Positions 1-60,278 of a DNA stretch of 64,000 bases are shown here, in pieces (the first letter of the stretch is position 1; every line of letters begins with the position of its first letter). Location: the NCBI GenBank assembly GCA_951406725.2, contig OX597833.1:26908001-26972000 (forward strand), given 5' to 3'. A program made the position numbers and the translations under genes. Below the pieces are notes generated by a model that was not told where the DNA came from, made no database searches, and saw only the letters and a list, made by a program, of their open reading frames with translations. This DNA is from Octopus vulgaris (taxonomy: Eukaryota).

Positions 1-245
1 TGCCTCTGTCCGTGGTTTAGGAGTGCCAAGTATTTTTTCTTAACATTGGGTGCACAACTAAAAGAGTCTTGTTCCACTGCGATAAGGTCCTTTCTATTGG
101 ACTTTCTTCTCTTTCTGAAGAAGAGCGTTGCTCGAAACGTTAAACCATTTTCCTTTCCTTTCTGAGCGTCTGCTAATAGTTTACATATACCACGTCCTCA
201 CGTTCTTGTTTTTTTGTGTTCGTTGTTCTTTTTCGGATGTACTAT
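1..245 (+). mobile_element. PLE-type 3' terminal (pseudo-LTR-like) fragment ending at a (TATG)n tract
   Basis: Contains a minimal hammerhead at 112-144, then a T-rich tail resembling other PLE tails in the window, abutting a microsatellite. Confidence 0.55.
112..144 (+). ncRNA. Minimal type I hammerhead ribozyme, canonical core
   Basis: TTT-CTGAAGA-A-GAGC(GTT)GCTC-GAAA-CG-TT-AAA; palindromic stem III ACGT, GUU triplet, stem I only 3 bp. Confidence 0.65.
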
Positions 246-2052
246 ATATGTATGTATGTATGTATGTATGTATATATGTATGTATGTATGTATGTATGTA
301 TGTATGTATGTATGTATGTATGTATGTATGTATGCATAAATATAAATTTATGCATGTATATCTATGATTAAGTGTACTTGTGTGTATGTACGAGTGTGTG
401 TGTTTATATGTGCGTGTGTTTCTGTGTGCCTGCTTGTCTCTTTACATATGTATACACAGGACTACAAGTATGTACATGCAATTTATTTCCCTTTACCTTT
501 GTATCGTTACTGATTTTATCGAAGTCATTGTTGTTTGCCTATCATCAATTTGTGATGGCAATACAATAAAATGCTTTCGGCTGTTACAACATTGTCAGTT
601 AATGTTGCTCTTACCGTTGTTGCTGTCGTTGTTGTTGCTGCAACGTAGCTAGCTTCAGAAGCAGTGTGTAGTATGATTGCTCTTAATTCTCAGAAAGAAG
701 TAGCAATGGTGTCTTGTATTTTCTTGCTTTTGTTGTGGTGCTGTATTTGACTGAAATTGGCGGTAATAATTCAGGATTCTGTACATTTAATGACAATGTT
801 TGCTATTTAATTTTTACCCTCCACCTTCTCTTTTTGTTTTTCACTCCCCTTCCTCTCAGGTTTCGGACATTTCTCATGCACTTATCAGTGAAACTCGTTT
901 TGTCAAATGACAAATATACGGGTACACGCAAACTTACAGACACGCACATATATGTGTGTGTGTATAAAGGTATAATTATAGATATATATATAATATAATT
1001 ATATATATATATATATATATATATATATATATATATATACATATATGTATGTATGTATGTATGTATGTATGTATGTATAAATGTTAAAAGATATACATAT
1101 GTGTGGGTATATATATATATATATATATATATATATATATATATATATGTATGTATGTGTGTGTACGCATATATATATATATATATATATGTTATAATCT
1201 AAACTGCGTCCTCGTGAAGCACATCTGTATATTCCATTCCCATAATCCAAAATTGCATGTTGGAGTTATAATTGTGTGAGACATGCACAAGAGTTTAAAA
1301 ACACAGGAAAATATGTTTTCCAGAGTAATTACAAGTCAGAACAGGTGACTTGAATTTGTTTTTGTTTTAGTATCATTTATTCACAATTACACATGTTTCA
1401 TTTGCTAATAGGCGTGTCCCCTATTAGCGATTCTACTTCGATAATCAAATAATACAGGATTTACATTGTTTGAAGCTTCTATATACAGCCAGTAATTAAG
1501 ATTCTTGTATATATAATGGTGGAAGCGTTTTCAGATATGGATGTAATAAACGTAAGCTCATACGCATTCAAATTCATGTGTACATGTACCTACACATACG
1601 CGTGCACACACACACACACACACACATACTTACATATATACATACACACACACATACACACAATGATGGACATTCAATATCATTCAGGAAATGCTTTTTG
1701 GCTACTTCCTTGGCAAGAACACAAAAATTTCTTATAGACAAGAGACACCCCTTCCAACACTCTCTAACACTTTGAACTCAGTAACAAACTATATTTAAGG
1801 AAGACTTCAACGAAAATCCTCCAGACCTGTTCTTGACCCCCGGACAGAAGAAAAACTGTTTTTACTTCAAATTTTTATAAATTTTTACTGATATTTGATA
1901 AGATGAGATTCATCGAAACCGCTAATATTTTGTTTAAATATTTTTTTATTAAATTCCCCCTTCAATTGAAATGTCTTAGGCTTACTTCTGTGATATTTGC
2001 ACCTCCAGATTTAATATACATATATATATGTATATACATGTGTGTGTGTGTG

Positions 2053-2837
2053 TACGAGGAGGTTCCTAAAAGTAACCTGAAACGTTCTGTTTGGGACAAG
2101 CCCGTTGTAGTACCGCAAGAAGCCATTTGATGCAACCTTAATCCACACTGCCACGTGGTACACCTTTGTTTTGCAGTGCTTCCCCCCTGTTTATCGATTT
2201 TTGCAATGGCTCAAATGAAGGAACATCATGCTTCAGTGAAATTTTGTTTTTCGCTGGGGAAAACGGCAGCCAAAACAATTCAATCTACTTACAACGCCGC
2301 TGCCATTGAGCAAAACAAGTTTACCAGTGTTCTTCATGCTTTATGAATGGTCACTTATCGCTTGAAGTCCAACCTCGTTCAGGGCGACTGTCGGCCTCCC
2401 GAACTAATGAACTGATCTTAGAGGACTGTTGCCGAACAATTGACGAACTTATTGATATGACCGCTGTGTCCTGGAGCTCCTGTCAACGAGTTTCGAGCGA
2501 GGAATTGCGAATGAATAGAATTGCAGCAAAATCTGTGTCATGAGACTGAATGCATGTCGTGAACTGAAAGAACAGTTGGAAGTTAATCCGACCCTATTTT
2601 CGAAGGTCATCACTAGTGACAAAATTGGTGCTACGGAATTTGAAGATGTGGAAGAGGTGAAGAAAAAAACGATGGAGGCGTTAAAAGGCATCACTTCGCA
2701 AGAGTTCCAGTGAAAAATGCGTCTAGACCGATGCATTTCTTGAAATGGAGAATACTTTGAAGCCGATAAAAGTATAAACTTGTAAAGCTTGGTGAATAAA
2801 ATAATATTGCAAAATTTTTTTGGGGTACCCCTTCGTA
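2053..2837 (+). mobile_element. Internally deleted, decayed mariner transposon
   Basis: TA-flanked imperfect TIRs (tacgaggaggttcctaaaag ... ttttggggtaccccttcgta). Translated pieces VKFCFSLGKTAAKT, QPRSGRLSASRT and RTIDELIDMTAVSWSSCQRVSSEELRMNRIAAK match the mariner N-terminal HTH region. A GEYFE-type C-terminus is present. Confidence 0.85.
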
Positions 2838-3779
2838 TATTCATGCACGTGGGCACAAACACAGTGTGAATTGCATGTATAGGCATAGATATTGATGTGT
2901 GTTCAGCAAAATTTTTTCTCAAACACAGAGTTCCACCTTCGATCCATTTGTTCGATACATTACGTGAATATCTTCTATCATAGCTTCACTTTAACCCCAA
3001 AACGGATGTGATATTTCACCTCTCTGATTGATTTTCACCAAACCGGAGTACCCTGAAAGATTTTTTGTTACTTGAGTAATCCGCTACAAGCATACTGACA
3101 CATTTCGCTCCCGAAATAATATTAAGAAAATATATGCTTATAGAAAATCCTCTACAACTGTAACTTTGTAGCATTTAATAAAAACATTAGTAATTTAACA
3201 CATGATATTATATCAATATTACGTAAACATATCCCAGACATCGAGCTGATGCAATCTCTGTTTACAAAAATGTATTATTAGATTTGAAAACAAATCACGA
3301 CTAAATTATACCACGAAACCGCAATTACAGAATTATTATGAAGAAAATCAGCTTCAACTAATGAATCTTCAACGAATTTACACATACAGCATCTTACCAC
3401 GGAAACGAGAATAGGATGAGAGCTGATGGAATATCGTTCAAAATTTGACCAATATTTTTAGTCTCGCTGCTATTTTCTTGTCAACAAGCAAGTGTTATAT
3501 CATGGTACAATTAGCAGTGGTCTGTGATGTGAAATATAAGAATAGCAGCCAACGTATTTCAAAGTCCGAATACTTAGTTTACTATTATGATGCATAACCA
3601 CGTGAGCCTAACATTAAAGATGAATTTACCAACTCTGGAGGATATGACGAGCTCACCAATTAAAACAAAGAATATACGCTCCAACTCTGAATGGAATATG
3701 ATACGCGGAAAATGTTCAGAAGCAAATGATTATATATATGTGTATGTATGTGTATACGCGTGCGTGTGCGGGTTTAAAT

Positions 3780-3960
3780 GCCTGAGGAGTGTTGGATAGA
3801 AGCCATTATTTCTATATCTTCGCATGAAATTCTCCTTTTGTATATATGCTTCCATATATGTTGCCTGTCTCATTTCTTTATTTGTTTCTTTCGTTGTTCA
3901 TGATATTCTTTTTGATGTTGTTCACGTTTATTTTTTGACGTCCTTTACCCATATATGCAT
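3780..3960 (+). mobile_element. PLE-like 3' tail, family 2 (related copies ~5100-5360 +, ~9200-9490 -, ~13175-13355 +)
   Basis: Shared tail atgttgcctgtctc..ttcgttgtt..gt(c/t)ctgtacccatatatgcat, always ending at TA/TATG tracts; decayed CTGAGGA..GAAA motif at 3782-3830. Confidence 0.45.
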
Positions 3961-4100
3961 GTGTATATAGATATATGTGTAGGTATGTACTTGTTATGTA
4001 TGTATATATGCATATATATATATATATATATATATATATATATATATATATATATATATATATACATATATATATATATATATATATATATGATATATAT

Positions 4101-59222: not shown

Positions 59223-59548
59223 TACCTTTTATCTTTTACATATATATATATATACATGTGTGTGTGTGTGTGTGTGTGTGTGTAAAAGATAAAAGGTGTA
59301 TATATATATATATATATATATATATATATAACAATAATAAATCTCTGAGCGAGATATAAACAGTAACTGCTCTATAACATAAGGGGGATCAGCCATCTGA
59401 ATGTGGTTGGGACAGGGCGGGGTGGTGGGGGTGTTACTGATGCATTTAGCCCCAGGCGATCATCAACGTCACCAGAAGGGCTGACACCATCTCGGTGTCC
59501 TTGCCAGCCTGCAAAGGGAGATCAGCCTCCCCGAAGATACGGATACTA

Positions 59549-59591
59549 CATACGGACCGGTTTCGAGGTATTTGCCTCTTATCAACGCATG
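59549..59591 (-). ncRNA. Minimal type I hammerhead, U3-A8 variant
   Basis: CATGCG-TTGATAA-GAGG(CAAATA)CCTC-GAAA-CCGG-TC-CGTATG. Confidence 0.8.
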
Positions 59592-59906
59592 GTAAGCACC
59601 GTTCTTCGTTGAGGACTTCCTCTACAGGCTGGATATATATGGATTTTCACAGTAACCACAGTCACTGATGTAGAAAAACCGTTCGACAACAATAATAAAT
59701 CTCTGAGCGAGATATAAACAGTAACTGCTCTATAACATAAGGAGGATCAGCCATCTAAATGTGGCTAGGGACAGGGCGGGTGGTGGGGGTGTTACTGATG
59801 CATTTAGCCCCAGGCGATCATCAACATCACCAGAAGGGCTGACACCATCTCGGTGTCCTTGCCAGCCTGCAAAGGGAGATCAGCCTCCCCGAAGATACGG
59901 ATACTA

Positions 59907-59949
59907 CATACGGACCGGTTTCGAGGTATTTGCCTCTTATCAACGCATG
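59907..59949 (-). ncRNA. Minimal type I hammerhead, U3-A8 variant (second copy)
   Basis: Identical to 59549-59591, 358 bp away. Confidence 0.8.
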
Positions 59950-59966
59950 GTAAGCACCGTTCTTCG

Positions 59967-60278
59967 TTGTAAGCCATTAAAGAAACACACAAAAGCCGTT
60001 CGATTCATTTCAACATTTAAGTTTAATTTGTCAAAATATTTTCGTCGCTTTAAGACTGCGACCTGTTCACTGACAAAAATCCGTGCTGCAGCAGTGAACA
60101 GGTCGCGGTCTTAAAGCGACGAAAATATTTTGACAAATTAAACTTAAATGTTGAAGTGAATCGAACGGCTTTTGTGTGTTTCTTAAATGGCTTACAAACA
60201 CCTTCCACGCTGCAATTGTTTTCGTTTCAGCACACGATCTCAGATCAAATCACTTGCTATGCAAGTACATCTCCGTAA
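59967..60278. repeat. Fold-back insert (arms ~106 bp) of a family 5 hammerhead element
   Basis: 59967-60072 is the reverse complement of 60092-60197 with about 3 differences; the right arm continues to the (TA)n at 60278. Confidence 0.93.
60027..60077 (-). ncRNA. Minimal type I hammerhead, G3-C8 variant
   Basis: TTTGTCA-GTGAACA-G-GTCGC(AGTCTTAAA)GCGAC-GAAA-ATAT-TT-TGACAAA; 7-bp stem I, AATATT palindrome, UUU triplet. Confidence 0.75.

Follow-up and report, generated by a model that had tools for sequence, protein, structure and literature searches.

Minimal type I hammerhead ribozymes have been described from Penelope-like elements (PLEs), where they are widespread, slow in vitro and, in one in vitro study, dispensable for insertion. 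For such minimal motifs, monomers were reported to stay uncut and dimers to be cut weakly (Cervera and De la Pena 2014, PMC4209133), and the small PLE variants of Lunse, Weinberg and Breaker are summarized as having a reduced palindromic stem III and cleaving as dimers (Weinberg 2019, PMC6765202). The PLE hammerhead of the Anolis Poseidon element is described as cutting only with the PLE protein and as dispensable for insertion in vitro; a C3G/G8C double mutant was partly active, and uncut RNA was the main template (Frangieh 2024, PMC11167929). A hammerhead with a changed core position 6 is reported from phage Bcep176, whose A6C ribozyme is slow in Mg2+ and better in Mn2+ (PMC3088659, PMC7151607). 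Here we report on a window of 64,000 nucleotides from Octopus vulgaris (assembly GCA_951406725.2, contig OX597833.1, positions 26,908,001 to 26,972,000, forward strand), in which a first-pass annotation had listed a series of hammerhead core variants. We established 15 such motifs, the genomic copy numbers of their families, the presence of the motif of one family (A) on both sides of intact open reading frames (ORFs) for a reverse transcriptase (RT) with a GIY-YIG endonuclease, and constraint on this motif at the level of subfamilies. The membership of the motifs in Penelope-like retroelements is the point that the annotation had missed.

Hammerhead motifs in the window and the genome

The window is animal DNA of 35% GC, rich in microsatellites, from a parent assembly of 2.8 Gb. 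Our descriptor of the minimal type I hammerhead left positions 3, 6, 7 and 8 (hammerhead numbering) free and let the palindrome begin at A15.1. Over both strands it gave 11 matches; local dinucleotide shuffles, 40 in number, averaged 0.55 and never exceeded 4, and the reversed window sequence gave 1 match. Four further copies (45773, minus strand; 45994, plus; 54794, minus; 60094, plus) fail the strict descriptor and were found by homology. The resulting 15 motifs, in line with the estimate of about 15 in the first-pass annotation, have the minimal architecture of PLE hammerheads (stem I, 7-nt core, stem II, GAAA, palindrome, UH, stem I), 11 of them strictly and 4 in degenerate form. They fall into five repeat families, with five motifs in family A (U at core position 6, U6), one in family E (A6), three in family B, four in family C and two in family D. 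Family E, found at position 115, is related to family A, which leaves four unrelated lineages; the annotation's view of the families as unrelated holds to this extent and not for A and E.

The four cores that the annotation had cited were present, at 115 and 55419 on the plus strand and within 59549-59591 and 60027-60077 on the minus strand, as were its palindromes ACGT, ACCGGT and AATATT. An additional palindrome is ACCUGGGU, which is self-complementary with two U.G pairs. Positions 3 and 8 form C-G in 6 motifs, U-A in 4, G-C in 2, U.G in 2 and C.A in 1, and are thus Watson-Crick paired in 12 of 15; no more than 5 combine a descriptor match with A6, a Watson-Crick 3-8 pair and H17. Families A, E and D have both an extra base between 9 and 10.1 and a G10.1-C11.1 pair, family C has this pair without the extra base, and family B has A-U there.

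Copy numbers were taken as exact pattern counts over the genome, and every reversed control pattern gave 0. Family A had 16,332 exact matches, the A6-type families E and H 4,766 (roughly 100 of them A6 copies of family A), family D 5,188, family B 683 and family C 102, while family F (U3-A8, palindrome AATT), absent from the window, had 2,276. The descriptor was also run on a genome sample of 69 stretches of 10 kb (690 kb) at round coordinates on 26 contigs. It gave 31 matches, compared with 6.4 in 8 shuffles (about 6 expected by chance), and 22 of the 31 were Watson-Crick paired at 3-8, compared with 2.0 in shuffles. This density of about 1 per 28 kb corresponds to about 100,000 motifs genome-wide (59,000-145,000), and the density in the window exceeds that of the sampled stretches about fivefold (p=2e-4). 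The load is therefore large, as the annotation had suggested, and its figure of one motif per 4-5 kb applies to the window only. The sampled stretches also contained a further U3-A8 hammerhead family with palindrome ACCGGT, family G, which is absent from the window.

If AT-rich, repeat-rich DNA merely happened to match a loose motif, this would account for about 6 of the 31 sampled matches. For the 15 listed motifs this explanation is refuted and has practically no probability left, given the excess of 11 over 0.55 in the window, a shuffling comparison that the annotation had itself proposed, and the 102 to 16,332 exact genomic matches per family, with 0 for the reversed pattern.

The number of motifs also bears on the proposal of the first-pass annotation that they constitute a large active ribozyme load cutting host pre-mRNAs. 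Five plus-strand motifs of the window (four of family A, one of family E) have the ACGT palindrome in common and could pair in one long transcript, and Xenopus retrozymes are reported in a preprint to be depleted in introns (bioRxiv 10.64898/2026.07.22.740005). However, no host exon was identified: none of 132 open frames of the window matched Pfam in the host gene search, which small exons could escape, and the motifs lie in both orientations (9 plus, 6 minus). Three inverted pairs hold 6 of the 15 motifs, two of these pairs being near enough to fold back as long hairpins. No stem III is expected in the monomer, and the published PLE hammerheads are slow and dependent on dimers (monomers uncut, dimers weak; PMC4209133) or on protein (PMC11167929). 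Cleavage of host pre-mRNAs is therefore unsupported, and we regard it as a very improbable account of these motifs.

Family A and core position 6

The family A motif lies in the terminal part of a PLE. At 30649..30867 (plus strand) the window holds the C-terminal piece of a GIY-YIG endonuclease, in a 5'-truncated copy reaching about 31863, and a U6 hammerhead that passes the descriptor follows about 0.9 kb 3' of this piece (31724..31761, plus; predicted cut after 31756). All 150 scored genomic matches to the endonuclease piece were 100% identical, and 28 of 30 GIY-YIG loci have the U6 motif 3' of the endonuclease on the same strand. Nine loci with long frames were fetched; the frames run to 1,046-1,200 codons in eight of them, a U6 motif stands downstream in all nine, and in seven two copies of the motif lie about 4.5 kb apart, forming pseudo-long terminal repeats (pseudo-LTRs) that flank the RT and GIY-YIG ORF. 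This ORF is single, begins about 750 nt downstream of the motif and comprises 1,076 codons from its methionine, with RT followed by the C-terminal GIY-YIG. The protein matched RVT_1 of Pfam above the cut-off (E=1.4e-7) and GIY-YIG below it (E=0.0065), with the motif of the latter visible.

The translation contains a CX4CxxC linker between RT and endonuclease, and family A copies mostly end in (TA)n; a CX2-5CxxC linker combined with insertion at microsatellites is given as the definition of the Neptune/Nematis type (Craig 2021). Copies with the long ORF are 99.1-99.8% identical over 2.8-2.9 kb, which indicates that family A is young. We assign the motif to the terminal repeat of a PLE that is young, of Neptune/Nematis type and equipped with intact ORFs for RT and GIY-YIG. 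The other four family A motifs of the window, all matching the descriptor with U6, are found at 4193..4230 (minus; C3-G8; in a 5'-truncated PLE end of about 4096-4316), 7099..7136 (plus; C7; in a truncated PLE end of about 7041-7237), 17348..17385 (plus; in a truncated PLE end) and 58006..58041 (plus; G7; of an older subfamily). The family A end and the tandem junction are both covered by contigs of runs presumed to be RNA, a type of data that does not resolve strand, level or cleavage ends. These contigs lacked even the known variation at position 7, and nothing on U6 in other organisms was drawn from them. They also showed no joint at the pyrimidine tract and AG of family A, considered as a 3' splice site, a result that weighs neither way.

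Core position 6 was U in 15,730 of the 16,332 exact family A copies, and the two repeats of intact elements both have it; of the 602 copies without U6, the first 100 comprised 71 with C, 19 with A and 10 with G. Families B, C, D and E have A at this position, and the sister families E and H carry A6 on the same stems as family A, with varied loops. The family E motif of the window (112..144, plus; found by the descriptor) is a minimal hammerhead with the canonical core C3-G8 and A6 and the palindrome ACGT. Downstream of the motif, families A, E and H retain a block CUGAGCG (31780-31788 and 160-169) that duplicates the 5' strand of stem II; it could pair alternatively and so switch the motif off.

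To sample family A independently of the motif, we used a 19-nt word lying downstream of it (20,661 matches) and kept the first 70 copies that contained this word; 14 of them were truncated before or within the motif and were dropped, so that 56 were analysed. The hammerhead consensus leaves positions 7 and 17 free, and within the motif, polymorphism at a threshold of 15% was confined to these two columns. Position 7, whose free variation the first-pass annotation had rightly noted, was U in 23 copies, A in 20, C in 8 and G in 5, and position 17 was A in 43, U in 11, C in 1 and G in 1. None of the 32 constrained motif columns was polymorphic at this threshold, compared with 18 of 68 flank columns (Fisher p=5e-4); over three thresholds p ranged from 8e-5 to 4e-3, the 10% threshold adding two CpG columns (p=8e-5). 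The descriptor fails on 18 of the 56 copies.

A tree of 71 element ends, built with positions 6 and 7 left out and with an unreliable root, placed the A6 families E and H on one side (100/100) and the four A6 copies inside family A all within its most diverged subfamily. It is compatible with a change from A6 to U6, the direction being unproven, and needs two to three changes. Overall, the U6 family reads as a young, intact family of jumping genes with more than 15,000 copies, in which a normally fixed letter of the catalytic core has been changed.

Families B to E and the pairing of positions 3 and 8

Families B and D appear to be PLE-like repeats. The three family B motifs of the window are located at 38091..38126 (plus; descriptor; C3.A8, the family majority being U3-A8; palindrome ACCGGT), 55416..55451 (plus; descriptor; U3-A8, with U.U at the base of stem II) and 54762..54797 (minus; homology; U3-A8, with G12 lost), the last being the inverted partner of the motif at 55419. 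This family varies in its 5' extent and has (TA)n ends. In family B, at 38080-38094 in the window and also in fetched loci, a pyrimidine tract and CAG end immediately before core position 3, resembling a 3' splice site; an intron ending at helix I is reported for Drosophila Penelope (Cervera 2014, PMC4209133). The family D element is about 215 nt long; in 20 of 25 loci it begins at the same point, some 20 nt 5' of the core, and in 17 of the 25 a partial copy in inverted orientation lies upstream. Its two motifs in the window have G3-C8 and are found at 60027..60077 (minus; descriptor; palindrome AATATT; in the inverted partial copy) and 60092..60137 (plus; homology), where the 5' strand of stem I is truncated by the inversion and the element runs to about 60275 and then into (TA)n.

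Family C is a non-coding tandem unit of 357-360 nt with one type I hammerhead per unit, found at several loci; the unit folds at z -4.06, and the tandem has no Pfam match. On these features, family C can be classed as retrozyme-like. The window holds about 1.8 units of 358 nt at 59330..59969 (minus), joined directly to the inverted family D copy, with two descriptor matches of subfamily 1 (U3-A8) lying 358 nt apart at 59549..59591 (minus; palindrome ACCGGT, C17) and 59907..59949 (minus). The joint of the inverted family D copy to the tandem, at 59960-59970, shows a few shared bases, as though template switching had copied both in a single event. Subfamily 2 (U3.G8) forms an inverted insertion at 45583-46184, with one motif in its left arm (45735..45779, minus; the 8-nt self-complementary ACCUGGGU) and one in its right arm (45988..46032, plus). 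Loci of families B to E, with (TA)n flanks and inverted partial copies, have a PLE-like insertion shape, and from this shape alone we infer their dependence on PLE enzymes.

The first-pass annotation had read positions 3 and 8 as covarying Watson-Crick pairs. This holds between families: C-G is found in A and in E/H, U-A in B, subfamily 1 of C, F and G, and G-C in D (93 of 100 copies listed), so that 7 of 9 lineages are Watson-Crick paired (permutation p=0.047). It does not hold among the copies within a family. Family A has 334 copies without C3, and among the first 100 of them G8 was kept in 97 and none was compensated. The 100 family C copies listed comprise 37 with U3-A8, 38 with U3.G8, 25 with C3.A8 and none with C3-G8, and 63 of them are thus non-Watson-Crick (subfamily 2, U.G; subfamily 3, C.A). 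Each of the three subfamilies has its own flank letters, tandem arrays are present in all three, and wobble changes preserve the pairing of stem I in each of them. The palindrome of subfamily 2 is lengthened to 8 nt, and co-folding still pairs 8 bp between two copies. For the dispersed copies of family A, the uncompensated changes and the descriptor failures point to neutral decay, and selection would act, we infer, on a few master elements.

These data also bear on the possibility that the A6U, U3.G8 and C3.A8 cores are dead ribozymes, carried passively by elements that do not need them. Changes at position 3 of family A go uncompensated, 18 of 56 sampled copies fail the descriptor, the family C subfamilies are small and young and would have had little time for decay, and Naiad PLEs are described as having spread without canonical hammerheads (Craig 2021). 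However, since U6 the subfamilies of family A have come to differ at 18 of 68 flank columns and at none of the 32 constrained motif columns, and decay is seen in dispersed copies and not in the letters that characterize subfamilies. We consider dead ribozymes unlikely.

Several other repeats were observed. A sixth repeat family at about 5115-5393 (plus), 9203-9482 (minus) and 13177-13356 (plus), seen in at least 8 fetched loci, has a hammerhead core half CUGAWGA, an extra A and a G-run; its GAAAC lies upstream rather than downstream, with a GAUGA box between, and it misfits the type I descriptor. Looking up its sequence gave no match. One of four other window frames matched the Pfam mariner transposase, corresponding to a mariner/Tc1 fragment at 43108-44012 (minus; Transposase_1, E=3e-18) between inverted repeats. 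A decayed PLE RT fragment at 44270-44956 has 24% identity to the family A protein, and a short frame at 47147-47485, without a Pfam match, presumably resembles a Naiad-type RT. Another PLE lineage in two sampled stretches (L135, 7960-9962, minus; L306) has long open frames with about 29% identity to the family A protein, and the descriptor found no minimal hammerhead beside the L135 copy. A 42-nt tandem repeat occupies 52702-52876 (4.2 copies, 96% matches). Rfam gave nothing at gathering score in the window, and its E-value matches were microsatellite or hairpin matches to microRNA models.

Possible function and relation to known systems

The reading that we favour, with reasonable confidence, is that these are minimal type I hammerheads in the terminal repeats of a PLE (family A) and of repeats likely copied by PLE enzymes (families B to E), and that they are likely slow self-cutters. 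They would process tandem element RNA slowly and would need a second copy and probably the element's own protein; the prediction is that the palindrome yields stem III only when two copies pair. In co-folding, two copies of family A, and likewise two of family C, did pair through their palindromes. Each family would fix its own core, whether C3-G8, U3-A8, G3-C8 or A6U, and in family C also U3.G8 or C3.A8. Insertions would in most cases be made from uncut or re-ligated RNA, so that weak cores, U6 included, would be tolerated. The predicted cut site is spanned by 56 of the 70 family A copies. Of the 14 shorter ones, no more than 1 begins there, a distribution in keeping with templates that were uncut or re-ligated.

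Several points weigh against this reading. For all families, cleavage itself is a prediction from sequence. In Mg2+, A6C reportedly makes cleavage much slower (Perreault 2011, PMC3088659; Naghdi 2020, PMC7151607), single changes at 3 or 8 abolished cleavage of the Anolis PLE hammerhead (Frangieh 2024, PMC11167929), and the U6, U3.G8 and C3.A8 lineages were nevertheless amplified. Co-folding gave no palindrome helix for families E and D, and in the family A monomer the fold of minimum energy has core bases paired with one another. A tblastn search with the family A protein found no PLE ORF by the motif in the 3-kb loci searched (25 of family B, 25 of C, 25 of D and 30 of the A6 type). As for the constraint in family A, parts of the flank are also conserved, loop II is constant as well, the upstream flank is of low complexity, the alignment columns are not independent, and the 70 copies all lie within the initial 9 Mb of a single contig. 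The lineage-level p of 0.047 for covariation counts related lineages apart.

The main rival, to which we give a minor but real probability, is that the hammerhead fold is kept for a job other than cutting, such as pairing two element RNAs by way of the palindrome or binding the RT-endonuclease. If catalysis were dispensable, core changes that slow it would be neutral. This would suit the fixation of U6 in the youngest intact family, the 63 of 100 family C copies that are non-Watson-Crick at 3-8, the copies that run through the cut site, and the report that catalytic mutants left insertion in vitro unimpaired (Frangieh 2024, PMC11167929). It would not explain so readily why the unpaired U4, G5, G8, A9 and GAAA are fixed across the family A subfamilies while 7 and 17 vary, or why G17 is rare (1 of 56). 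Moreover, the double changes U3-A8 and G3-C8 are fixed in four other families, a pattern expected of an active-site fold.

Returning to slow self-cutting, a more specific proposal, to which we give somewhat less than an even chance, is that a young and intact PLE runs on a U6 hammerhead that is still active through the element's protein or through rescue by Mn2+. If this is true, the natural mutant series of U6, G3-C8, U3.G8 and C3.A8 would show PLE hammerheads tuned for slow cutting, and standard descriptors would miss the largest hammerhead family of this genome. Descriptors that fix A6 would in any event miss the commonest family found here. The A6 and U6 sister lineages on the same scaffold, together with the three family C subfamilies that differ at 3-8, have all been amplified and provide material for testing directly whether these elements require cutting.

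The architecture, the link to PLEs, the many families per genome, the large numbers and the U3-A8 variant have already been published. The octopus motifs resemble the minimal hammerheads described for metazoan PLEs (PMC4209133) in the short stem I, the extra base between 9 and 10.1 together with the G10.1-C11.1 pair (families A, D and E), the palindrome for stem III, the U-rich flank, the location in pseudo-LTRs (family A), the prevalence of solo copies with some inverted pairs, the many families per genome and the U3-A8 variant (about 1,300 in Schistosoma). The reduced palindromic stem III is also that of the Lunse-type PLE variants as described in PMC6765202. Our figure of about 100,000 motifs, obtained with a looser descriptor, is about ten times the highest number of the metazoan study, about 9,000 in Xenopus (PMC4209133). 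Whereas the published consensus has A6 (PMC4209133), the largest family here has U6, and there are a G3-C8 family and family C subfamilies with U3.G8 and C3.A8.

Family C resembles the animal non-LTR retrozymes (PMC7229834; bioRxiv 10.64898/2026.07.22.740005) in its non-coding, well-folded tandem units with one type I hammerhead each, the described criteria being a self-paired, non-coding tandem unit of 170-400 nt with one type I hammerhead (PMC7229834). This likeness is known from DNA, circular RNA being part of the retrozyme definition. Unlike retrozymes, family C has the cores U3-A8, U3.G8 and C3.A8, with no C3-G8 among the 100 copies listed, and many of its insertions are inverted or solo.

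The octopus literature on hammerhead ribozymes that we searched contained, judging by the listing, nothing on these motifs, and the main text of an octopus repeat-annotation paper is silent on hammerheads and ribozymes. No natural A6U hammerhead was found in the literature searched, partly by title and abstract, and the only G3-C8 found there had been engineered; either variant may be listed in Lunse 2017 or in one Cervera supplement, which lay outside the search. The tie of A6U to intact PLE ORFs and the constraint on the motif were established in the present analysis.

Like the Anolis Poseidon PLE (Frangieh 2024, PMC11167929), family A has a pseudo-LTR hammerhead in a tandem element with RT and GIY-YIG. 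The Poseidon hammerhead has a canonical core and overlaps the start of the ORF, whereas the family A ORF starts well after the motif and has a Cys linker of the Neptune/Nematis type. The G3-C8 pair that was engineered in Anolis Poseidon (PMC11167929) is natural in family D. Finally, family A shares with the A6C hammerhead of phage Bcep176 (PMC3088659, PMC7151607) a natural pyrimidine at core position 6, but C6 is known there from a single phage sequence, whereas over 15,000 copies of family A, a retrotransposon that is young and belongs to an animal, have U6.

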